Shown here: piece by piece, positions 3,999 through 41,764 of the stretch
Layout: each line of letters opens with the position of its first letter
Numbering within the stretch: position 1 is the first letter of the stretch
Source of the DNA: Polyangium sp. y55x31
Lineage (GTDB): Bacteria; Myxococcota_A; Polyangia; Polyangiales; Polyangiaceae
Direction: 5' to 3'
Assembly (NCBI RefSeq): GCF_029946505.1
Contig: NZ_JARZHG010000009.1
Span: forward strand, 1 to 42,926
Length of the DNA: 42,926 nucleotides
Notes under the pieces: generated by a model
Seen by the model: the letters and a program-made list of their open reading frames with translations, nothing else
Told to the model about the DNA's origin: nothing
Databases searched by the model: none
Made by a program: the position numbers and the translations under genes

Positions 3999-5770
3999 CG
4001 CTTCCAGACCTCCGCGCGCGAGGCGCGCTTGAGCACGAGCTCGGTGAACGCATTGATGTGCGCCTGCAAGGCGAAGAATCGGCTCAAGACCGAGGCGAGG
4101 AGGACCGGGCTCGATCCGGCGAACTGCTCGTCCGCGAGCGTGAGCGTGATCTCGAGGCCCCGGCAATACCCCCGCCACGCGTCGCTGCCGAGGCGGCGCG
4201 TGACGACGCGGCTCGAGATCTCGAGGAGCGCGTCGATCTGGCGCTCGGCGTCGGGCGAATCGCCGAAGACGTAGGCGCGCAGGATCTCGCGGAGCGCGGA
4301 GACGCCGGTCTTGCCGTCGGTGATCGAGAGGTGGTTCTGCGAGAGGTTCGAGACGAGCCGCCAGAGCGCGTCGCCGCCCATCGGCGCGGCGCGCTGGGGC
4401 GTCGGTTTCGTGAGACAAACGATTTTTTTCGCCGGGACGGGGCGCTCGGGCGAGAGCTGCGTGTCCTTGGCGATCTCGTTCGCGAGGTCGCGGTTCGTGC
4501 AGAGGACGCCGGCGTAGACGGTCTCCGACGGGGGACGCGAGAGCTTGAAGTCGGTGTCGACGAACGTGAGCCAGACGTCGGTGCCCGGCAGATCCTTGCG
4601 GCCCGTGGCGACGCGGCGCGCGTGCCAGAACGCGCGGGGTTTTTCGCCCGAGCGGTGGTGCACGAAGGAGAAAAACGGCGCGTAGTCGATCTGCTTGGGC
4701 TCGCCGGGCGCCGTCGCCGCGACGCGGGTGATCGAATGGACCTCGGTGGTCCGCTCGCGGCGCGCGTCCGCGACGAGGCGATATTCGGGCCGCGTGTGAT
4801 CGACACGGATGGGCTCGGCGCTGCGCGGGAAGAGGTTGATGATCGGGGTGCAGCCGAGCTTCAGCGTGGTCGGGCGGACCGCGACGCCGGCCGGCGGCTT
4901 CTGATCGAAGAGGACCAGGATCTTCGCGTTCTTGCGCGGCGGCAGCTTCGGCAGCTCCAGGTCGAAGAAATGGAACTTCTCCGGGAACGCGAAATACTCC
5001 TGCACGAGCCGGTGGCCGCGGTGCGCGTGCGGCGGATACGGCAGCACGTCCTCGTTCGCCTCGAAGCCGATGGGGCGGATCTTGCCGTAGGCCCAGTCCT
5101 GCGAGGGTTTTTCCCCGACCACGAGGACCTGCACGGCGTGCGCCGCGAGCAGATCGTAGAGGCGCGCCGCGCCCATGCCGCCGCCCGTGATGTGGAAGCG
5201 GAGCGAGCGCATGCCGAGTTTGTCGAGCGGAACGCCACCCGTCGAGATCTCGATCTCGAGCGCCGCCGCGGCGTTCGTGAGCAGCCACGAGGGGAGGTCG
5301 AGGTTCTCGGGCGGGACCATGCCCGCATTGATGATGTCGATCGGCCAGAGCGTGACCGGATACGCGGTTCGGAAATGACAAACCGGCCCGGACTGCGAGG
5401 CCGCGAAGAGCGGCGTGTGCTTGTCGACCGTGTACCCGGAGCCGAGCTTGGCCTCCTTCGGGTCGATCTCGAAGCCGGCGATCGCCATCGCCGGCACGGG
5501 ACACGCGAGCTGCGGATAAAGGACGCCGAGCAGCGACGTCGTGTAAATCGGTAGCTCCGCCTCGATGTCGCGCGTGAGGCGCGCCGAGAGGAACGCGAAT
5601 GCCTCGACCAGGCGCTCGACGTGTGGATCGGACGAGGCCTGGTTCGAGGTGCCGAGGCGCGCCGCGATCTTCGGATAGTCCTTCGCGAACTCGGCGCCGC
5701 GCTCGCGCAGATACGCGAGCTCGCGCGCATACAGCTCGAGCATTTCGCGATCGGGATCTCCCTTGCTCAT
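3962..5770 (-). CDS. tssF: Type VI secretion baseplate subunit TssF (ImpG/VasA family), 602 aa.
   Basis: Track ORF. The N-terminus MSKGDPDREMLELYARELAYLRERGAEFAKDYPKIAARLG is the characteristic TssF/ImpG start. Its ATG overlaps the tssE stop (ATGA). Confidence 0.9.
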   Translation of the reverse strand: MSKGDPDREMLELYARELAYLRERGAEFAKDYPKIAARLGTSNQASSDPHVERLVEAFAFLSARLTRDIEAELPIYTTSLLGVLYPQLACPVPAMAIAGFEIDPKEAKLGSGYTVDKHTPLFAASQSGPVCHFRTAYPVTLWPIDIINAGMVPPENLDLPSWLLTNAAAALEIEISTGGVPLDKLGMRSLRFHITGGGMGAARLYDLLAAHAVQVLVVGEKPSQDWAYGKIRPIGFEANEDVLPYPPHAHRGHRLVQEYFAFPEKFHFFDLELPKLPPRKNAKILVLFDQKPPAGVAVRPTTLKLGCTPIINLFPRSAEPIRVDHTRPEYRLVADARRERTTEVHSITRVAATAPGEPKQIDYAPFFSFVHHRSGEKPRAFWHARRVATGRKDLPGTDVWLTFVDTDFKLSRPPSETVYAGVLCTNRDLANEIAKDTQLSPERPVPAKKIVCLTKPTPQRAAPMGGDALWRLVSNLSQNHLSITDGKTGVSALREILRAYVFGDSPDAERQIDALLEISSRVVTRRLGSDAWRGYCRGLEITLTLADEQFAGSSPVLLASVLSRFFALQAHINAFTELVLKRASRAEVWKRWPPTAGERALL

Positions 5771-17435: not shown

Positions 17436-17663
17436 CTCGGCAAAACCTGCCGCGTTCCCTGCCCGCGCGCGCGTCGTGCCTCCCTCGCGATGCGCTACGC
17501 GAGCGTATGGCTTTCGCGGCGGGCGGCGCCGCACCCATTCAGCGATTCCCCGAGGGCAGGCGCGCGGGGGCGAAGGATGGCCGCGCCCCGCTTGCTGCGC
17601 GGTGCGCACGGCTCCACATGCATTCGTGACGGGGTACGGACAGCACACGAGGAGGGGGGCGTC

Positions 17664-18743
17664 ATGAGGAAGATGCAATCGACGACGCCGGCGCGGCTTC
17701 ACGAAGAACGGGAGCATCGGCTGACGGTGGCGTTGAGCGTGGCCTTCGCGGCCCTCGCGTTCCTGGCCTGCAAACAAGGGGAGCGCGCGAGCGCGAAAGG
17801 CCAATGCCCGCCCGGGGAGACGTGCTCGGATCGAACACCGGAGGGCCTGAATTTCATCGGCGCGCATACGGTCAACGACGCGGACACTGCGGACCTCCTG
17901 CCCACGGCGATCGGGGGCACGCAGACGGTGACCCTTTATTACGCGGGCTCGCCCAACGTGCCCTACGTGGCCGGATTCGAGGCGAGGCCCGTCGATTCCA
18001 CGATCGCCACGCTCGAATCGCAGAGCCTCTCCGAGCTGGTCCTTCAAGGCGCCACCGAGGGAAAGACGCTGCTCCGGGTCGTCGAGCCGGGGACGAACGC
18101 GCTGCTCGACCGGGTCGAGATCAAGACCGCCGCGGTCGCGCGGATCTCCGTCATCCCGCGGGAGCTGCGGTACGAGACGGTGACCCCCACGCAGTGGGCG
18201 GTGCTCGCCGGGAACCCGGCGGATCTCGGCGTCTTGCTCTTCGATGCGAACAACGTCCAGGTGATCGACGAGACGCTCGACGTGCGCGCCCACGGAGCCG
18301 AGATCTCACGGCGCACGTGGGATCGTCGCGAGGTCACGGCGCCTTCGGAGGGCTCCCTGACGCTCATGGTGCGGGCGGGGGATCATCGGGAGCCGGTGGA
18401 GGTGCAGGTCGTCTCCTCGGTGAAAGACATCACGCGCAAGCCGCAGGACAGCACCGAGCAGCCGGGCCCGATCGAGATCCAGGTCGGCGCGGCGGCGGAG
18501 ACGTTCTGCTTCCTGGCCAAATCGGACGACAAGACGGTGGTCGGGGCGCCGTGGGGATTCGAGCCGTCGGAGAACCTCTCGATCGCGCGGCCGTCGCCGC
18601 CGTCGGATACCCATCCGTGGGATGCGCCGTTCTGGTCGCCGCCGAGCTGCGTGGCGCTCGCGGGGGCGAAGGTCGGGACGGCGACGCTGAAGGTGAAGGC
18701 AGGCGACTCCGACAAGGTGTTCGAGGTCTCGATCCGGGAATGA
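17664..18743 (+). CDS. Secreted lipoprotein / Ig-like (BIG-type) domain protein, 359 aa.
   Basis: Internal start MRKMQSTTPARL (M194 of track ORF 17085..18743) with GGAGG 8 nt upstream. Signal peptide …LSVAFAALAFLACKQG. Beta-rich Thr/Val-rich body with repeated …KTLLRVVEPG… / …ATLKVKAGDSDKVFEV… strands. Confidence 0.55.
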   Translation: MRKMQSTTPARLHEEREHRLTVALSVAFAALAFLACKQGERASAKGQCPPGETCSDRTPEGLNFIGAHTVNDADTADLLPTAIGGTQTVTLYYAGSPNVPYVAGFEARPVDSTIATLESQSLSELVLQGATEGKTLLRVVEPGTNALLDRVEIKTAAVARISVIPRELRYETVTPTQWAVLAGNPADLGVLLFDANNVQVIDETLDVRAHGAEISRRTWDRREVTAPSEGSLTLMVRAGDHREPVEVQVVSSVKDITRKPQDSTEQPGPIEIQVGAAAETFCFLAKSDDKTVVGAPWGFEPSENLSIARPSPPSDTHPWDAPFWSPPSCVALAGAKVGTATLKVKAGDSDKVFEVSIRE

Positions 18744-18749
18744 CGGCCG

Positions 18750-19259
18750 TCATCCCTCGGAGCGATCGCGGGCGGCGGAGGCCTCGGTCTTCGCCGCCTG
18801 GTTCTTGCGGCGGGTCTTCGCGCCCTTCACGGCGATCTGGGCATTGTAACGGAGGGTCTTCTCGAAGGGCGCGAGGAGGGCCTTGTCGCGGGTGCGCTGG
18901 GCCGTGGACTTCGTGATATCGACGATCCGGGCGATGGTGTTCTCGCGCTGATGGGTCTTCAAGCGGCGCGACTCGCGGGTGACCTCGAGGAGCTTTTCGA
19001 GGAGCATCTCCTTCTGGAGGAGCGCGTCGATGCTCTTCGTTTCGGCGACGAACCGCTCGTAGAGCTTGGGGGAGATGCCGGCGGACTCGCCGAGCAGAGG
19101 GAAACTCGCGGCGAGCTCGTGGACGACGTCCTCGATTCCCGGCTGCACGCCGCGGAAGCCTTTCGCGCCGCCCGGGGGGAGGTCGAAGAGGTCGTCCTTC
19201 ACGTCGGCGAGGGAGACGTCGAGGGGGCCTGCATACGGGAGCATCGGACCGGTCGTCAT
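18750..19259 (-). CDS. Hypothetical protein, 169 aa (MTTGPMLPYAGPLDVSLADVKDDLFDLPPGG…), with a basic and possibly helix-turn-helix-like C-terminus.
   Basis: M69 of track ORF 18750..19463, with GGAGG 6 nt upstream. The N-terminal 68 aa of the track ORF lie in the hairpin-repeat array and are not coding. The stop is convergent with the upstream lipoprotein gene inside an ATGACGGCCGTCAT palindrome. Confidence 0.45.
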   Translation of the reverse strand: MTTGPMLPYAGPLDVSLADVKDDLFDLPPGGAKGFRGVQPGIEDVVHELAASFPLLGESAGISPKLYERFVAETKSIDALLQKEMLLEKLLEVTRESRRLKTHQRENTIARIVDITKSTAQRTRDKALLAPFEKTLRYNAQIAVKGAKTRRKNQAAKTEASAARDRSEG

Positions 19260-19320
19260 GGAGCACCTCCGGGTAGGGGTGCGCGATCGACGGTCGAGAG
19301 GGCGAGGTCGTGAAGGGGGA

Positions 19321-19630
19321 GCACGAAGTCGTCTCCTGGGAAGGAGGAGGGCACGGCGGGTGGGGGTGATGTGGTGGGGTGGTGAGGATGAGATCGTCCT
19401 CTGGGGAGGATGAGATCGTCCTCTGGGGAGGATGAGGAGAGCCTCCTGCGATGAGGATGGCATCGTCGTGCAGGACCCATGAGGCTTTGGAGGAAGATGC
19501 CTTCATCCTCGGGGGAGGATGACGAGGGGAGGCGGGGAGGATGAGGAAGTCCTCGTCCAGGAGGACCTCCTCTTCCTATGTAGAGGAGGGCAGCTTCGGG
19601 GAGGATGAAGGCGTGTTCGGCGCAGGCTCG
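19321..19630. repeat. Intergenic array of about 9 degenerate tandem ~23-nt units (consensus GGGGAGGATGAGATCGTCCTCTG). Each unit is a GAGGA-N7-9-TCCTC mini-hairpin.
   Basis: Seen in the sequence: two perfect tandem copies (gaggatgagatcgtcctctgg x2) followed by diverged copies (ggaggatgaggagagcctcct, gaggaagatgccttcatcctc, ggaggatgaggaagtcctc, ggaggacctcctc, ggaggatgaaggcg...). The units are contiguous with no unique spacers, so this is not CRISPR-like. Confidence 0.7.
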
Positions 19631-19632
19631 AA

Positions 19633-22600
19633 TCAGCCTCGCGAAGGGGGGACTTCGCGGCGCGAGGTCACGCGTCGACGAGCGAGGAGCCCGGCGGCGA
19701 GCACCAAGGCGGCGATCGGAGCGCCCGACGCGGGCCCGCCCGAGGCCTGGCAGCCGGCGTTGACGGCCGAGCCCTTGGCCTGGTCGGCGCCGCCGCCCGG
19801 AACCAGGTCCTCGCCGCCGCCCGCACCCGAGGAGTTGGATCCGCCGCTTCCGCCGCTTCCGCCGCTTCCGCCCGTGCCGGCGCCGCTGCTCTCGCAAACG
19901 CCGCCCATGCAGGTGCCACCCGCGCAGGATTCGCCGTCCGGCTTCGTCGGGTCGTCGCAGGTGCCCGTCGCCGGATCACAGGTGCCGGCCTCGTGGCATT
20001 CGTCCTCGGCCGTGCAGACGACTGGATCGGCGCCGACGCACGCGCCCACGTCGCAGGTGTCGCTTTGCGTGCAGGCATTGCCGTCGTCGCAGACAGCGCC
20101 CGTGAGCGGCGTGCAGGTGCCGTCGGCGGAGGCGCCGAGCGCGACAGCGCAAGCCTGGCAATCGGGTGCGGAGTTGCCGCAGCTCGAGTTGCAGCAGACG
20201 CCGTCCGCGCAGAAGCCGCTCGCGCAATCGGTCGACGCGGAGCAGGCGGCGCCGAGGGATTGCGAGGTCGTGAGGAGGCGGGCGCGGATGCGGTTGCTGC
20301 CGTAGGGCGGCGCGGTCTCTCCCTTCATGTACGCGAGGAGCAGGTGGCCGGCGCCGTCGCTCGCGAGCGCGGGCTTGTCGTGGTGCGCGGCGCCGAGGCC
20401 GGCGAAGGGCTGGCCGCCGGGGGTGAGGACGTCGCCGGCTTCGGTCACCCAGCTCCCGTAGATGGCTCCATTGACGCCATGCCGCCCGTCACGCCAGACG
20501 ACGAGGCAATCGGTCCCGTCGAAGGCAATGGCCGGATTGCCGCTCTGATAATTGGAAGTCAGCTCGACGTCGAGGGTATCGATGACGACGCCGGCGCCCG
20601 TGACGCGGGCCAGGAACACACGGCTGTTGGTGTAGGCGACGGTGAAGTTCAGCCCATCGAACGCCACCGCGGGGGAGCCGGTCGCATTGGGGCGGATGAT
20701 GATCCCCGGCGGCGCGTCGAGGAGCACACCCGCGGTCGTGATCCTCGTGCCCCGCAGGGTTCCGTACGTCGAGACCACGAAGTATCGGTTGCCGTCGAAC
20801 GCAATGCCGGGGCCCGATCCGCTCAAGGCAGCACTGCTGATCAGAAAGCCAGTCGGCTGAAGGAGGACGCCGGCCTGCGTCATCAGGGCGCCGTAGACAC
20901 CCGATGTCGAACGGCCGTCTTGCCAGGCGACGAGGTAATTCGTGCCGTCGAATGCGATCGCCGGGGCTTGCTCGTGCCGGTTCGCCACCGCGACGAGGGG
21001 GATCCCGGCAGGATCGGCGACGACGCCGGCCGCGCTCACGCGCGCCGCATAGATGTCGTAATAGGTCCCCGAGCGCTTGTCTTGCCAGACGATCATGTAC
21101 TGGGTGCCGCCCCAGACGACCTTCGGGGAGGATTGCTCGCCGGTCGCGGCCGAGATCACGATGCCCGAGGGATCGAGCACGTCGCCGGTAGGCGAGATCC
21201 GCGTGGCGTAGAGGTCCACGGTCGCGTTGTCTCGCATGTCCTGCCAGACGACGAGGTAGTTCGTGCCGTCGTAGGCGATGGAAGGCGCGTCCTGCTGGTT
21301 GGCCGCCGAGAGGAGCCTCAAGCCTTGCGAATCGTGGACGGTGCTCCCCGTGAAGCGCGCGCCGTACGCGATCGGAGTACTACCGCCCGCGCGCAGGTCC
21401 TCCCATGTAGCAAAACAAGCACCACCGCCGCACGCGACCTCCGGCCCGGATTGCTGGTTCGCAGCGACCGCGAGGGGCGTGCCGGTCCCGTCGAGCGCGA
21501 CGCCGTCGACCGAGACCCGTCCCTGCCAGATGTCCTGATCACCCGTGCGATTGTCGGTCCAGGTGACGACGTACTGGGTGCCGTCGAACGCGACAGAGGG
21601 CGTCGACTGCGTCCCCGCGCTCTTGCAGACCTCCACGCCGATCGGATCCAGCACGGTCCCCGAGGGCGAGACCCGCGCGCCGAAGATGTCCGGGTTTCCC
21701 CACTTGCCGTCGTTCCATACGACGAAGTAGTTCGTCCCGTCGAAGGCGACCGAAGGAGCCCCTTGGCTCTGGGCCGAGAGCGAGATGGCGAAGCCATTGG
21801 GTTCGAGTACGGCCCCGGTCCCGGTCACGCGGGCGCCGTAGATATCCGCGATGCTGTTGTTACGCGTGTCCGTCCAGACGACCAGGTAATCGGTACCATT
21901 AGACGCAACCGAGACATCGCTCTGGATGGTGCTAGTCGGGGTCGAAATGCCGAACTGGCTCCCGATGGCCGTACCCGTGGCGTCGACGAGAGCGCCGTAC
22001 ACGTCCCCAACGACTTCCCAGGCGACGAGGTGATTCGTACCGGCGGCGGCCACGTCGAGCGAGTTGATGTTCTGATTGGGGTAGCTCCCGTACTTCTTCG
22101 GCGTCGGGTCCAGCACGACGCCGGCCGGCGAGACCCGCGCACCAACCACGAGGCCGTTGCTGCCGACGAAGGCCCCCCATGCGACGAGGTAGTGGGCGTT
22201 GGCGAAGGTCACCGCGAGCTTGTTGGAGCTGGCGCTAGGGCCGGGCCCGGCTCCGATCTCGAAGCCCCCCGGGTCCAGGATCACGCCCGCGGGTGTGACC
22301 CGCGTGCCCACGACTGTGAGTGAGCTGAGCTTGTTGAGCTGCCGCGCGTCGATCCAGGCGACGAGCCAATTCGTCCCGTCGAAGGCGACCTGCGGGGACG
22401 ACTGCGCCGTGGTCACCTGGAAATAAATGGGCGTATCACTGCCGAACTCGGGGCCAATCGTCGGGTCGAGCACCGCAGGGTAAGCGGAGCCCTCCACGAC
22501 GGCCTCGGGTACGGTCAAGACGAGCTCGCCCTCGGCCTTCGTATACCGGACCGGGACCGCCGTTCGTTCGCCCCGCCCGTCGATCCACGTCGCCAGGCCA

Positions 22601-23256
22601 TACCGAAGCCCGAGGCCCGTCGCCGGATCGACGAAATGGTGCCCCGCCGCGGTCTCGCCCGCGTACGCCTGGCCCGTGACCCGGACGCGGATTTCGAGGT
22701 CGCCGCGTCCTTTCGGCTGCGTATCGAACGAGAAGCTCTGCTCGACGCCCTCGTCGTCGTTCCGTAGGTGCTCGGTGACGTCGCCCCGCGTGATGGCGAG
22801 GTGGCCGTCCTGCTCGACGCGGCCTTCGACGCCGCGAAGATCGCGGGCCGCGCCGCGGGTCAAAGAGACGGTTTCGAAGGTGGCCTCCGCCCCCTCGCCC
22901 GCGGCGGACGCGGGTCGAACGGAGAATGCCGAGGTCGAGGCGCGCACCCCGTACGTCGAATGCCCGCCCGCCCAGCGTTCGCCGTCCTTCCGGAAGGCGA
23001 AATGGACCTGCCGCATGACGCCGTCGAGATCAAACGGAGCGGACGCCTGCGTGCGTTTCCCCGGCGAGCGCAGAGCTGCCGGCTCCGGAGGCGTGGTCTC
23101 GCGCGGCGAGAGCTCCCCATCACGGGCGGAGCACGACGCGAGGAGCGCGACGACCCAGACGACGAGCGCGGCCCCGATGCCGCGCCGAATACGCTCACGA
23201 GCCGCGACGCGGGACGCGGCTCCCTTTCTCGGACACGAAGATACGAGTCCAGACAT
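19633..23256 (-). CDS. Large repeat lipoprotein (1207 aa). It has a lipobox signal (…VVALLASC), about 17 tandem ~48-aa repeats (…Q.sP.VAFDGTNYLVVWxDxRxGxxDIYGARVSxxGxVLDPxGIxIS…), then a Myxococcus cysteine-rich repeat module and a C-terminal MYXO-CTERM sorting domain.
   Basis: Track ORF; visible internal periodicity. The Cys-rich segment VCDDGNACTQSDTCDVGACVGADPVVCTAEDECHEAGTCDPATGTCDD matches the Myxococcus cysteine-rich repeat. The tail …NAGCQASGGPASGAPIAALVLAAGLLARRR matches the MYXO-CTERM (GC + hydrophobic + RRR) pattern. Confidence 0.7.
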   Translation of the reverse strand: MSGLVSSCPRKGAASRVAARERIRRGIGAALVVWVVALLASCSARDGELSPRETTPPEPAALRSPGKRTQASAPFDLDGVMRQVHFAFRKDGERWAGGHSTYGVRASTSAFSVRPASAAGEGAEATFETVSLTRGAARDLRGVEGRVEQDGHLAITRGDVTEHLRNDDEGVEQSFSFDTQPKGRGDLEIRVRVTGQAYAGETAAGHHFVDPATGLGLRYGLATWIDGRGERTAVPVRYTKAEGELVLTVPEAVVEGSAYPAVLDPTIGPEFGSDTPIYFQVTTAQSSPQVAFDGTNWLVAWIDARQLNKLSSLTVVGTRVTPAGVILDPGGFEIGAGPGPSASSNKLAVTFANAHYLVAWGAFVGSNGLVVGARVSPAGVVLDPTPKKYGSYPNQNINSLDVAAAGTNHLVAWEVVGDVYGALVDATGTAIGSQFGISTPTSTIQSDVSVASNGTDYLVVWTDTRNNSIADIYGARVTGTGAVLEPNGFAISLSAQSQGAPSVAFDGTNYFVVWNDGKWGNPDIFGARVSPSGTVLDPIGVEVCKSAGTQSTPSVAFDGTQYVVTWTDNRTGDQDIWQGRVSVDGVALDGTGTPLAVAANQQSGPEVACGGGACFATWEDLRAGGSTPIAYGARFTGSTVHDSQGLRLLSAANQQDAPSIAYDGTNYLVVWQDMRDNATVDLYATRISPTGDVLDPSGIVISAATGEQSSPKVVWGGTQYMIVWQDKRSGTYYDIYAARVSAAGVVADPAGIPLVAVANRHEQAPAIAFDGTNYLVAWQDGRSTSGVYGALMTQAGVLLQPTGFLISSAALSGSGPGIAFDGNRYFVVSTYGTLRGTRITTAGVLLDAPPGIIIRPNATGSPAVAFDGLNFTVAYTNSRVFLARVTGAGVVIDTLDVELTSNYQSGNPAIAFDGTDCLVVWRDGRHGVNGAIYGSWVTEAGDVLTPGGQPFAGLGAAHHDKPALASDGAGHLLLAYMKGETAPPYGSNRIRARLLTTSQSLGAACSASTDCASGFCADGVCCNSSCGNSAPDCQACAVALGASADGTCTPLTGAVCDDGNACTQSDTCDVGACVGADPVVCTAEDECHEAGTCDPATGTCDDPTKPDGESCAGGTCMGGVCESSGAGTGGSGGSGGSGGSNSSGAGGGEDLVPGGGADQAKGSAVNAGCQASGGPASGAPIAALVLAAGLLARRRVTSRREVPPSRG

Positions 23257-26300: not shown

Positions 26301-27736
26301 GGAAACTCGAGCTCGCCGAAGTCGCCGCCCGAATCGAAGGCCGCGATCGAGGCGGCCGGGACGGTCGCGCCGGGATCGAGCTTGCGGTTCGCGTCGCCCC
26401 GGGACGCGGCCCCCGCAGGCGGCGGCAGCTCTTCGGGCGCGGGCAGGTCGAGCTCGCCGAAGGCGCCGAGATCGGGCGCCGGGAGATCGATCTCGCCGAA
26501 GTTGCCGAGGTCGGAGTCGGCGGAGACGGCGGGCAGGTCGAAGCTGCTGAGCGGTTTTCCGCGCAGCGCCGTCATCGCGCCGGAGGAGCGGTGCCGCGGG
26601 CCGGGCGCGGCCGGCGCGGGGAGATCGGCAGGCTCGTTCTTCGCGGGAGCGCGCGCGGGCGCGGGGAGATCGATCTCGCCAAACCCCTTCGCCGCAGGCG
26701 GCGCGGGGCGCGCAGCGGCGGGGCGCGCCGGCGCGGGGAGATCGATCTCGCCGAACCCCTTGGCCGCGGGCGCGGGGCGCGCGGGGGCGGGCAAATCGAG
26801 CTCGGGCGTGCTCTTCTTCGCGGGGCGCGCGGGGCTCGGCAGATCGATCTCCGGCGCGGGCGCGTTCTTCGCCGCGGGACGAGCGGGCGCGGCGAGGTTC
26901 TCTTCCGGCTTCGGCGGCGGCGGCTTCGGCGCGGCGGGGCGCGCGGGCGAGGGCAGATCGATCTCGCCGAACCCCTTCGCCGCGGGGCGCGCGGGCGCGG
27001 TCGGTTTGTCGTCCGGCTTCGGAGGACCAGGCTTCGCCGCGGCCGCGCGCGTGGGCGACGGCGACGGCGACGGTAGATCGACTTCGAGCGAGGCCGTCAC
27101 CGGGGTCGCCATCTGCCGGACCGTCGGCTTGTTCGAGGGTACGCCGGGGGGCAGCTCGATCGCCGCGAGCGCCGCGTCCTCCTCCTCTTCATCATCGAGG
27201 GGGAATTCGTTCACGACCGCGGCCATCTGCCGCACGGTCGGCTTCGCGGGCATGGGCAGGTCGACGAGCTCTTCCTCTTCGGCCGCGGGCAAGGCGGCCG
27301 GCATCTGCCGCACCGTCGCCTTCGCGGGCGAAGGAAGATCGATCTCGCCGAACCCCGGATCGTCATCACCGCCCCACAGATCGAGCTCCGTGGCTTCCGC
27401 GGGCTTCGGCGCGGGCGCAGCGGGCTTCGGGGCGGGCGCGGGCGCAGCAGGCTTGGGCTTCGCAGGGAGCACGGGCGGCTTCGGCGCGACCGGAGCGGCC
27501 GGCGCTTTGCCCAGCGCAGGGCGCGGCAGGAGCGGCTCGGTGCCACCTTTCGCGCGCGGCGCGACCGGCGAGGGGAGATCGATCTCCTCGGCCTCCGCCG
27601 GCTCCGCAGGTTTGCGGACCAAGAGGCTCGTGCCGCACTTCGAGCAGCGCATCTTGAGCCCCGTCGCCGGGATCCGTCGTTCCTCCACCTGGTACGGCGA
27701 CCTACAGGAGTCGCACTCGACCTTGACCATGCTCAT
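23375..27736 (-). CDS. MJ0042-type zinc-ribbon / Pro-Ala-rich repeat linker / single-TM / large TPR-repeat protein (~1453 aa). Its architecture resembles the myxobacterial GltJ(AgmX) class.
   Basis: Track ORF 23375..27781. Preferred start is MSMVKVECDSCRSPYQVEERRIPATGLKMRCSKCGTSL (CxxC…CxxC zinc ribbon at the extreme N-terminus). The ~600-aa linker carries 8 or more copies of GFGEIDLP[AS]PARPA and 3 copies of KPTVRQM. A TM helix follows (VYGIGAAVLIAIGGGALALLP), then ~800 aa of TPR-like repeats. Confidence 0.75.
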   Translation of the reverse strand: MSMVKVECDSCRSPYQVEERRIPATGLKMRCSKCGTSLLVRKPAEPAEAEEIDLPSPVAPRAKGGTEPLLPRPALGKAPAAPVAPKPPVLPAKPKPAAPAPAPKPAAPAPKPAEATELDLWGGDDDPGFGEIDLPSPAKATVRQMPAALPAAEEEELVDLPMPAKPTVRQMAAVVNEFPLDDEEEEDAALAAIELPPGVPSNKPTVRQMATPVTASLEVDLPSPSPSPTRAAAAKPGPPKPDDKPTAPARPAAKGFGEIDLPSPARPAAPKPPPPKPEENLAAPARPAAKNAPAPEIDLPSPARPAKKSTPELDLPAPARPAPAAKGFGEIDLPAPARPAAARPAPPAAKGFGEIDLPAPARAPAKNEPADLPAPAAPGPRHRSSGAMTALRGKPLSSFDLPAVSADSDLGNFGEIDLPAPDLGAFGELDLPAPEELPPPAGAASRGDANRKLDPGATVPAASIAAFDSGGDFGELEFPLASEPPPAPAASPASRPRAAASATAGFELDDAAFDAAFADPPPNKAAAAPKPATPAPPASTRAAAPVSKPGEEFSLGEPDMDLSTGAPISTGAATQRADVPAAAAPRAPAPPPEDDAGIGDEVDLAPGESEGLDTALAKRDRSPKSLARPAGEKRPRGRGRVYGIGAAVLIAIGGGALALLPDIGPFGAHAVSDLVNASAHAEALSGLEKNTQATLDEDTAAAAARALAAAKAAQLSRPRHRATAAYAAYVAFSRSVRHGRRGDDETLGKQLLGQTESPSRERTLAVAAQHALAGRLDPARRMAKDALDADANDIDAAVLIGEIELASGATADALVAWKRAVSIRKGARSLYGLARAELAKGDAASAEKSARAALEASPKHAGARTLLASILGRDPAKETDALDLLGKVTAEGDIRASASERELVEAYLETGRIHLARSRITAAEQAFAAALKIDPRSGAALIGDGELFYRSSRFSQSLLRFEEAMRVDETSFPARIGATKTLLALERLKDAKALAEKLRADKPDAAASAYWLGRVEDALGNKKEAEALYLQAIKLGGTQTEAVEAYVALASLLSAAGRNDEAQAKLAEASAKFPDLPALHRAKGEVFSQAGRYPEARTEFEAALAKEDDLGTRFRLGVTLRRMGAFEESQKVFDQIATVDKEFPGLSLERGLLYEETGQSERALEMYAAALEKAPTDIDLKMRVGSAQVMAGHAAQAEPILREVLKERAGSADANHFLGRALLLKGGSSAAGEAIRFLERATEIDGNRAEYFLYVGWAANVLGQFPKAEAALKRALELDRELADAYWQRGVLLHKQGRTLDALADLEIALQKRPSRHEAHATMALCYQELGRWPEAQTAWQKAIAGNGSVAEWHYRLGKIFESNGNKLAATPELDKAVELLLQKNGPAESWHADAYFLHGEAMRATGQKDKAVKSYLRFKEVAAMDNAYRTDVERALVSLGQGQGGAPPRPNP

Positions 27737-40291: not shown

Positions 40292-41764
40292 TCAGAACAC
40301 CGTATCCATCTGATCCGGGATCACCTCTCCCACCTCGTTCGCACACGCAATGCCTGCGCCCGACGCGTCCTTGCACCCCGTCAACGAACACGGGTACGGC
40401 GCGGCCTTCTGCGGGTTTGGCAGGATGAACATCGGATTGACGATCCACTTGTTCATGTAGTTCGCGTACGCGTTGCACATGAGCTCGTTCTTGTTGCGGT
40501 TGATCGCGAGCTTCAGCACCGTCGCGTCGTGCAGGAACGAGATGTCCGTATCCGAATCGCCTGCGCCGAACACCGGCCGCTTCTTCATGTCCGCGTTCGG
40601 CATCTCCGCCTCGGCCCCGGCCACCCCGTAGATCACCTTGTTCATCCAGCAGCGCTTGCCCTCGATGTACGTGATCATCGTATTGCCGACCGGGTTCCCA
40701 CCGTTGCCCGATCCATCCACGACCGACCCGCAGCCTTCGAAGTCGTACGTCAGCTTTCCGCCCCCGTCGAGCAGGTTCCGGATCGCAATCACGTGATCCG
40801 CGCCCACGCTCACGCGCTCCGCGAACGCCTCCACGTTGGGCTGCGGCGACGCTGAAATCACCCACACGTCGAGCCCGTTCTTCTGCATCACGTCGATCAG
40901 ATCCTTGATCTGCTCGTAGATCCGCACGTATGCATTGACCGACGTCGTCCCGATCGTCTGCTTCGACCCCTCCGCCGCGGCGAGCCCCTCTTCGATCGCC
41001 GTGTTCGCGAATGCCTTCATCTCGGCCGGCGTGTATCCCGCCTGGATCTGCGCGGCCCATGCATACGCGGGCTCCATCGTCCGGTAATCCCACCCTGCGA
41101 ACGCCGCCTTCGCGCCCACGGTCTTCGCCGTCGTATACACCGCGAGGATCTCGTCCGCGCATTCCGCGTTCGTGCTCGTCGGCAGCGGCATCCCCGCTTC
41201 GGCCAGGCTCCCGCACGCCTGGTTCAGCGCGTTGCGCGCGTCATTCGTCAGGAAACGGCTCGTCGCGCGCCAGTCCTTGTTCGGCGGCTGCATGATCTTG
41301 TCGTTCTTCACGAGCCAGAAGAACACGAGGTCTCCCACGTCGTTCTTGATGACCGTGTTGTCCCAGTCGAAAATCGCGACCGGCTTCTCCGTGGGATCGT
41401 ACGACGGGCTGTTCACCCCGACATCGTCGATCATCTTGTCGAGCGCATCGCGGTTCTGCCCGTACCACGGCAGATTCGTATTCAGGTCGGGCGCGGCCAT
41501 CGAGCCGCCCGCGCCGCCCATCCCGCCGGCCCCGCCCATTCCACCGGCGCCCCCCATTCCACCCGTGCCCCCCATTCCGCCCGTACCGCCCATTCCACCA
41601 ATGCCGCCGGTGCCCCCCGTACCGCCCGTGCCACCGGTCGCGCCAGCTCCCCCGTTGCCTCCGGAGCCGTTCTCGCCCTCGTCCGTGCAAGCCGCCGAGA
41701 GCGTCGCCATCCCCACAACGAGCGCGACGGGAAGAAAAGATCGAATCTTGATCATGACAAGCAT
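40292..41764 (-). CDS. HAD-superfamily (HAD-IB-like) hydrolase lipoprotein, 490 aa, with a Gly/Thr/Met-rich flexible linker after the lipobox.
   Basis: Track ORF. Signal …MIKIRSFLPVALVVGMATLSAAC; linker GGTGGTGGTGGIGGMGGTGGMGG… HAD motif I (VAIFDWDNTVIKNDVGD) and later motifs (…VWVISASPQ…, …GAGDSDTDISFL…). The start may be M4 (an AAGGGG box fits M4 better). Confidence 0.7.
   Translation of the reverse strand: MLVMIKIRSFLPVALVVGMATLSAACTDEGENGSGGNGGAGATGGTGGTGGTGGIGGMGGTGGMGGTGGMGGAGGMGGAGGMGGAGGSMAAPDLNTNLPWYGQNRDALDKMIDDVGVNSPSYDPTEKPVAIFDWDNTVIKNDVGDLVFFWLVKNDKIMQPPNKDWRATSRFLTNDARNALNQACGSLAEAGMPLPTSTNAECADEILAVYTTAKTVGAKAAFAGWDYRTMEPAYAWAAQIQAGYTPAEMKAFANTAIEEGLAAAEGSKQTIGTTSVNAYVRIYEQIKDLIDVMQKNGLDVWVISASPQPNVEAFAERVSVGADHVIAIRNLLDGGGKLTYDFEGCGSVVDGSGNGGNPVGNTMITYIEGKRCWMNKVIYGVAGAEAEMPNADMKKRPVFGAGDSDTDISFLHDATVLKLAINRNKNELMCNAYANYMNKWIVNPMFILPNPQKAAPYPCSLTGCKDASGAGIACANEVGEVIPDQMDTVF

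Follow-up and report, generated by a model that had tools for sequence, protein, structure and literature searches.

The stretch of DNA analysed here, called the window, comprises 42,926 nucleotides (nt) of a contig of Polyangium sp. y55x31 (NZ_JARZHG010000009.1) and contains, between two minus-strand genes, a non-coding array of head-to-tail repeat units of 21–22 nt. Judged from the compared loci, this array belongs to the gene downstream of it, which encodes a protein of 169 amino acids (aa), and not to the upstream gene, which encodes a MYXO-CTERM protein. Arrays of the same unit length precede many relatives of the 169-aa gene, keep a fixed register in Polyangium, contain recurrent half-sites and lie upstream of promoter-like motifs where such motifs are seen. 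We propose that the array is a helically phased series of protein-binding sites controlling the downstream gene, possibly bound by the product of this gene, a tentative reading to which we give a probability of roughly 0.4.

The array and its Polyangium counterparts

The sequence-only reading of the window had described about nine copies of a 23-nt hairpin repeat in a non-coding array. The array is real, since repeat finders agree on it and no codon periodicity is seen (both flanking genes have a GC content at third codon positions, GC3, of ~0.9), and the copy number was a fair estimate because ~9–10 of the ~14–15 segmented units are recognisable; the period is in fact 21–22 nt. Tandem Repeats Finder gave a period of 22 with 2.6–3.0 copies at 19380-19445, where each of three units carries GGACGA-TC-TCATCC enclosed by a GAGGA...TCCTC inverted repeat, and a repeat search gave eight in-register copies with spacings of 22/22/25/22/40/22. 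Five exact copies of GGGGAGGATGA and one copy with a single mismatch lie within 19381-19608; elsewhere in the 43-kb window only the site at 20689 matches it with one mismatch (shuffled sequences average 1.0 match), and the array motif is confined to the array within the window. The distal units are degenerate, the last one overlapping the stop codon of the upstream gene (19633). Coding repeats were ruled out by the mixed 21/22 spacing and the lack of GC3 periodicity, and an array of clustered regularly interspaced short palindromic repeats (CRISPR), already discarded by the sequence-only reading, by contiguous units that follow each other at 21–22 nt from start to start without unique spacers.

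The 169-aa product is identical to a hypothetical protein on record for Polyangium sp. y55x31. Orthologues of the 169-aa gene are present in four other Polyangium species, and five loci were compared, namely the y55x31 window and the orthologous loci L001–L004. In all five species the gene is preceded by a repeat-filled gap of 400–450 nt, in which a matrix-guided segmentation places 13–15 units of 21–22 nt in a common register relative to the ATG (-77, -99, -120, -142 and onwards to about -358), the arrays spanning -380 to -56 before the gene. The gene on the other side of the array varies in identity (a LysR neighbour, a SUKH immunity gene, an AraC-type regulator or the MYXO-CTERM protein) and is found in either orientation. 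In the two closest species, L002 and L004, the distal edge of the array is exactly where homology sets in. It is because of this fixed register, these differing upstream neighbours and this homology onset that we assign the array to the downstream gene; the earlier suggestion of an array in an untranslated region (UTR), if taken to mean the UTR of the MYXO-CTERM gene, does not fit an array fixed to the gene on its other side.

The same comparison bears on two related explanations, a 3' UTR stabiliser or terminator of the upstream gene and a dispersed palindrome like the repetitive extragenic palindromes or bacterial interspersed mosaic elements (REP/BIME), the latter also put forward earlier. 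The array of the window does directly follow the upstream stop codon and its units are palindromic, but in all other Polyangium species the gene upstream is another one or is divergent, and separate hairpins already stand at its stop codon. These hairpins (AGGCT-CGAATC-AGCCT and CGCGAAG-GGGGGA-CTTCGCG, at 19624-19659) extend across the stop and last codons of the MYXO-CTERM gene and may be a terminator without a U tract, separating this gene from the array. As to dispersal, a Polyangium unit matrix (at least 16 bits), applied to both strands of 93 kb from the five genomes, found 41 sites in the five arrays and a single one outside them, within a relative of the 169-aa gene, and the units run head to tail in a register fixed 5' of that gene. 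We consider both explanations very improbable. A pattern scan of a genome collection (TCATCCTCCCN{10,14}TCATCCTCCC) carries no information on dispersal: the matches listed were chance and coding (acidic-repeat) ones, mostly with periods that are multiples of 3, and no Polyangium locus was among them.

On the sense strand the Polyangium units have the consensus CAGGCCG(A/T)CCTCATCCTCCCGC, with A2, G3, G4, G7, T11, C12, R13, T14, C15 and T17 as the informative positions. A master unit, GACGA(GA/CT)TCGTGCT, nearly invariant in the five species, occurs once per locus at the proximal position. Between L002 and L004 the array is 89.8% and the proximal leader 91% identical, compared with 76.5% for third codon positions. 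A leader peptide or N-terminal extension reading through the master unit was rejected, as y55x31 and L001 differ in frame through a 1-nt indel, with the nucleotides conserved (alignment by eye); the substitutions fall at second codon positions in 0 of 8 cases by our own count, a marginal pattern.

The only matrix match outside the arrays is located at L003 6058-6079, in codons 20-27 of the family gene (QDDLVDL). The best intragenic matches of the five Polyangium genes, at codons 20-28 (K/Q-DDL(V/F)DLP), score 11.7–17.4 bits, and translation of units from many loci in the GAC frame gives peptides resembling the gene motif (EDDLILP, DDLVL, DEIV). These codons may hold an intragenic site, or the unit may have originated from them. 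The idea that array units pair in antisense with codons 20-27 was tried and rejected, the alignment scores not being significant against codon shuffles.

Arrays across the protein family

When 1.84 billion representative proteins were searched with a profile, 212 relatives of the 169-aa protein were returned, and upstream DNA was obtained for 27 family loci, whose proteins are 30–50% identical. Under a uniform criterion (period 20–23, at least 3.5 copies, within 1 kb upstream), arrays were found in 13 of 25 loci (18 kb of upstream DNA), or 15 of 27 with L145 and L146 included, and none in 167 kb elsewhere in the same 25 loci. Five of the array-negative loci have almost no upstream sequence, and L134, L135 and L140 show a weaker autocorrelation peak at 21–22. 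The unit length is 21–22 nt in every array (means 21.1–22.0) while the unit sequences differ (Table 1), and higher-order repeats of 21+22 or 21+21+22 are frequent. No partner other than the family of the 169-aa gene is consistently linked to such arrays, and the pairing of the two is a reproducible rule for an unannotated Polyangia family known from 212 cluster representatives, not an oddity of one genome.

In most arrays GGACGA and TCGTCC are each mostly 3- to 11-fold more frequent than expected from composition, and a gap of 2 between them is preferred. The enrichment with this gap was observed in y55x31, L001, L127, L128 and L130, and L125, L132 and L144 contain the core as well; the inverted half-site is not enriched in L002–L004 or L124. 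A GGAC/GTCC inverted repeat recurs across the arrays at varying spacings.

Such arrays could also be minisatellites without function, in which a palindromic, promoter-proximal master unit slips during replication so that arrays arise and turn over repeatedly. Turnover is indeed visible. L125 (5326-5623) and L126 (5411-5623) have identical proteins and flanks and differ by a clean array indel of 85 nt, exactly 4 units, which is either a copy-number polymorphism or an assembly collapse, both being metagenome assemblies. Units are homogenised within species, paralogues being 85% identical in L003 against ~57–65% between species at the same rank, periods of 43, 64–66, 85–87 and 110 nt indicate recent multi-unit duplications, and the y55x31 and L001 arrays are degenerate. 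However, arrays persist across proteins of such low identity despite this fast turnover, their unit length is held with unrelated linker sequences, and one register is kept in five Polyangium species. The L002/L004 array is moreover better conserved than synonymous sites, and nothing comparable occurs elsewhere in the same loci, so that we judge a functionless minisatellite quite unlikely.

The family members are mostly of 160–190 aa and have in common a ...LAPFEKTxxYNxQ...KTRRKN sequence and a low-complexity tail. No Pfam domain was found on the family region in the ten members scanned, and there was no PDB match. A structure model computed from 40 sequences is confident and gives a long alpha-hairpin (predicted local distance difference test, pLDDT, of 95), that from 5 sequences being poor (pLDDT 65), and fold searches with the 40-sequence model returned nothing informative. 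When the alignment is set against the model by eye, the conserved basic residues R98-R105 and K148-N153 would lie side by side on the predicted hairpin. One member, P0047 (328 aa), is fused to a C-terminal response-regulator receiver domain, a domain arrangement that hints at a signalling role.

Some of the family loci carry further elements. In L145, two 18-bp perfect palindromes, GTGCCCT(G/A)ATTAGGGCAC, are found just upstream of the array (~5230-5330), and further upstream a TCGTGCTGCC motif resembles the Polyangium master unit. In L138, a group II intron (1000-2880; Rfam RF02005, RF00029) is located upstream of an array region of ~700 nt.

Table 1. Coordinates of the array, its units and its flanking genes in the window, and size of the arrays at other family loci
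Feature	Position	Strand	Remarks
Whole array	19315-19640	-	~14-15 head-to-tail units of 21-22 nt; segmentation guided by orthologous arrays
Main tandem array	19337..19640	-	~13-14 head-to-tail units of 21-22 nt; sense (minus) strand unit GAGGACGATCTCATCCTCCCCA
Three best-kept units	19380-19401, 19402-19423, 19424-19445	-	near-identical
Most proximal (master) unit, GGAGACGACTTCGTGCTCCCCC	19315..19336	-	contains ACGA-NN-TCGT and TCGTGCT
Conserved proximal leader/promoter region	19260..19314	-	Shine-Dalgarno GGAGG at 19266-19270, 7 nt before ATG
Downstream 169-aa gene	18750..19259	-	ATG 19259-19257; unannotated alpha-hairpin protein family
Best intragenic unit-matrix match, codons 21-28 (KDDLFDLP; AAGGACGACCTCTTCGACCTCC)	19178..19199	-	same place in 5/5 Polyangium genes
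Upstream gene	19633-23256	-	1207-aa protein, weak MYXO-CTERM match
Array of L124			4 units
Arrays of L125 / L126			14 / 10 units; GGGACGACGAGCGCGTCGTGG
Array of L127			12 units; CGACGAAGTCGTCGACCCGAC
Array of L128			14 units
Array of L130			16 units
Array of L132			18 units; GTCCTCCAGGACGGCACCCCTT
Array of L138			~30 units; several 21-nt sub-arrays
Array of L139			4 units
Array of L144, Chondromyces crocatus Cm c5			~17 units; CGATGTCCTCCAGGACGACAT
Array of L145			18.6 units
Array of L146			14 + 5 units

Promoter-like motifs, folding and mode of action

A looser promoter scan revealed a recurrent motif, TTGAC(G/C/A)-N16-19-nATCC(T), between array and gene in L125/126 (-129), L128 (-92), L130 (-87), L138 (-131), L144 (-147) and L146, and TTGACT...TACAAT in the same interval of L145. 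Where a promoter-like motif is seen the arrays end 20–450 bp upstream of it, and in L128 the last array unit and the -35 part of the motif overlap; in Polyangium the arrays end at -56 before the start codon. With the motif between array and gene, transcription at these loci would start downstream of the array. The L125/126 array is in inverted orientation with respect to the gene and ~250 bp away from the promoter-like motif; DNA elements typically tolerate such inversion and distance. L144 also contains a good match to a sigma-54 promoter (TGGCATGACCATTGCG, 4739-4754), ~45 nt after the array and ~285 nt before the gene; a sigma-54 enhancer was not retained as a general explanation, the TGGCAT-N5-TTGCG match being found in C. 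crocatus only.

The hairpin potential reported by the sequence-only reading was recovered, the y55x31 array out-folding its dinucleotide shuffles on both strands (z = -4.0 sense, -4.5 antisense), and it recurs in many homologous arrays: z values range from -6.7 to -8.9 on both strands for L125, L132, L144 and L145 and are -4.6/-8.9 for L128. L127, L130 and L146a are not strongly self-complementary and fold at most marginally better than shuffles, and the L002 and L004 arrays have z ~0 on both strands, though they are 88–90% identical to each other. The GAGGA/TCCTC stem, formerly thought to be kept by every copy, is present in only ~6 of 14 window units (counted by eye), the others having different palindromes (CGATG...CATCG, AGGAGG/CCTCCT) or none. 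Units of the y55x31/6x1 clade begin with GAGGA, which gives a 5-bp complement to TCCTC, whereas in three Polyangium species CAGGC replaces GAGGA at unit positions 1–5 with TCCTC unchanged and no compensating change. Since the L002 and L004 arrays fold like shuffles in spite of their identity, and since CAGGC came without a change at TCCTC, the hairpin is not the property conserved in Polyangium. Where the arms fail to pair, most positions are neither G-T nor A-C, and wobble and A-C pairs are balanced, with no strand bias. These observations run counter to the structure-constrained evolution invoked before, and the similar self-complementarity of both strands together with mostly non-wobble mismatches is better accounted for by DNA palindromes than by an RNA made from one strand.

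The array could, alternatively, act as RNA. It would then provide ~14 small hairpins with stems of 4–7 bp that bind a protein or set the stability or translation of the mRNA, either in a long 5' leader of the 169-aa gene or in a separate non-coding transcript of the G-rich strand. In favour of such a role are the strong self-complementarity of y55x31 and most other arrays and, mainly, palindrome arms that vary by locus and yet stay complementary (GAGGA/TCCTC, CGACG/CGTCG, GTCCT/AGGAC, ACGACG/CGTCGT), to which can be added the lack of a recognisable promoter between the Polyangium array and the gene. Terminator-like hairpins are also located right after the array on the G-rich strand of L125 (5666-5681, +) and L132 (3498-3475, -), but both are weak and occur at the rate of shuffles (0.4–0.6 expected). 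Besides the folding results of L002, L004, L146a, L127 and L130, the uncompensated CAGGC and the mismatch pattern, several observations are at odds with RNA: some palindromes have centres of 1–2 nt, which are poor for RNA hairpins, promoter-like motifs stand downstream of the array in at least six loci, the L125/126 array is inverted, and no Rfam family matches the window array or any other family array. An RNA role thus appears unlikely, and for the multi-hairpin small RNA once suggested we found nothing in support. A Rho-utilisation site or C-rich leader was rejected as well, the C > G skew being absent in L128 and L130 and reversed in L125.

A particular form of RNA action would be a sponge of the CsrB/RsmZ type, in which GGAGGAUGA repeated on the G-rich strand titrates a CsrA-type protein regulating the type VI secretion system (T6SS). 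GAGGAUGA, which recurs 6–7 times on the plus strand, is similar to CAGGAUG, the site of CsrA, and T6SS is among the classical targets of Rsm. GGA is, however, not conserved: it is present in the G-strand units of Polyangium and absent from L127, whose unit CGACGAAGTCGTCGACCCGAC has none on either strand. In y55x31 it is placed, by eye, in the stem instead of the loop, and Rfam gave no match here either. On these grounds the sponge is practically ruled out.

Several hypotheses having thus been considered, a DNA element is the best fit owing to the two-turn unit length, the half-site core, the strand-symmetric palindromes, the position upstream of promoter-like motifs, the tolerance of inversion and distance and the conservation above synonymous sites. 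We propose that the array is a cis-acting DNA element of the 169-aa gene offering ~14 binding sites. With a spacing of 21–22 bp, about two turns of the double helix, successive sites would be presented on the same face, each built on the pseudo-palindrome GGACGA-NN-TC(G/A)TCC, and the array would be placed directly upstream of the promoter of the gene or abut it. A sequence-specific protein could bind these sites cooperatively and set the expression of the 169-aa gene and, in most Polyangium species, also that of the tssK-tssL-tssM genes of the T6SS that follow it. The prime candidate for this protein is the 169-aa product, because its gene is the only one linked to the array in every locus, and its putative binding would result in autoregulation, of whichever sign, or in a nucleoprotein scaffold.

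Several points weigh against this proposal of phased binding sites. The substitutions between L002 and L004 avoid the informative positions weakly (7 of 29 compared with 36% expected, p = 0.12), and the palindrome arms differ among loci and within L138, so that conservation at the level of structure fits as well as binding. The strict scanner found no sigma-70 promoter in any locus, the motifs described above coming from the looser scan, and no recognisable promoter was found downstream of the Polyangium array, which could therefore be a 5' leader there. The copy number differs between the otherwise identical contigs L125 and L126, and the number of units is therefore not strictly constrained; at least 14 phased sites, lastly, far exceed ordinary operators.

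Gene neighbourhood and comparison with known systems

In the four other Polyangium species, the orthologue of the 169-aa gene opens a block in which it is followed by a small gene, tssK, tssL and tssM. The window holds the same type VI secretion cluster (TssF, Hcp, TssC, TssB, TssM, TssL, TssK), with a plus-strand gene inserted between the 169-aa gene and the remaining cluster. This inserted gene (~17640-18743, +) encodes a lipoprotein-like product (MRKMQ...LAFLAC) without a Pfam match and is absent from the four other Polyangium loci. At L142 (1340-4181) the family gene is followed by a small open reading frame (ORF), then by VgrG (Phage_GPD, gp5) and a PAAR/C39-peptidase protein, and by its gene content this neighbourhood is a second, independent link of the family to T6SS. 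Conservation between Polyangium and L125 does not extend to the protein encoded after the family gene. Other repeats of the window lie within coding sequences: tandem repeats of 39, 72 and 108 nt (2–3 copies) at 26433-27062, in a 1468-aa zinc-ribbon/TPR gene, and a nested set of 9-, 18- and 54-nt repeats (GCCGCCCGT..., as many as 14 copies) at 41497-41653, in the minus-strand ORF 40292-41764.

As the module heads the tssK-tssL-tssM part of the cluster in Polyangium, it may be a control point of T6SS expression, whose regulation in these predators is, to our knowledge, not known. If the protein does bind the array, its fold would be new among DNA-binding proteins and the array would be a high-copy operator of a new type. 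On a bolder and rather doubtful view, array and alpha-hairpin gene would form an undescribed two-part module, a "satellite" of 12–30 units of 21–22 bp coated by the adjacent protein into a nucleoprotein (or ribonucleoprotein) assembly that would serve as a chromosomal landmark, scaffold or threshold device, wired in some lineages to type VI secretion genes, its unit having been seeded from codons 20-27 of the gene. A test organism is available in Chondromyces crocatus Cm c5, which is cultured and fully sequenced; its family gene is CMC5_081490, and its array is placed at about CP012159.1:10,947,036-10,947,400, as calculated from the position of L144.

Among known repeats, the enterobacterial REP/BIME elements are likewise short imperfect palindromes, intergenic and in tandem, but they are dispersed, alternate in orientation and usually lie 3' of genes, whereas the units described here run one way, 5' of a gene family, at a strict period of 21–22 nt and, in the 93 kb scanned, without dispersal. 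In Haemophilus influenzae, the 7-bp repeats upstream of hmw1A/hmw2A are promoter minisatellites that tune expression. Our arrays share with them the placement of a tandem repeat between the upstream region and the promoter, and a copy number that varies in near-identical strains (L125 compared with L126); they differ by a long, palindromic unit of two helical turns and by conservation across a protein family. Because the unit equals two helical turns, gain or loss of units leaves the helical phase unchanged.

Phased operators are also comparable. The pho boxes of PhoB are phased by 22 bp and the half-sites of AraC/XylS are spaced by 21 bp. For the P2 C repressor, the half-sites form direct repeats at 22 nt from centre to centre (PMC1904263). 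The present arrays resemble these operators by repeated sites at 21–22 bp from centre to centre next to a -35 region, and depart from them by site number, 12–19 as a rule and up to ~30 instead of 2–4.

Besides operators of the P2 C kind, the closest parallels are plasmid centromere and iteron arrays, such as the 10 x 11 bp of R1 parC, bound by ParR, the 12 x 43 bp of F sopC, bound by SopB and with an inverted repeat per unit, and the heptad arrays of omega protein. Like them, the arrays consist of many head-to-tail, helically phased units, often with an inverted repeat, they adjoin or overlap the promoter of the operon of the binder (here a candidate protein), and their unit sequence and copy number vary between relatives. 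As in partition centromeres, the tandem phased repeats stand upstream of an operon, with 12–19 units of 21–22 bp as a rule. The array does not belong to these families: the locus is chromosomal and not on a plasmid, and the linked protein is a predicted alpha-hairpin of 165–190 aa without a ribbon-helix-helix or helix-turn-helix fold. No partition NTPase (ParA, ParM, TubZ) was found among the called genes beside the array in L001–L004, L125, L144 and L146, and L145 has a CbiA/ParA-like gene ~2 kb from its array. Though chromosomal, and with neither a motor gene nor a known DNA-binding fold, the tight coupling of gene and repeats resembles that of centromere/adaptor and iteron/initiator pairs.
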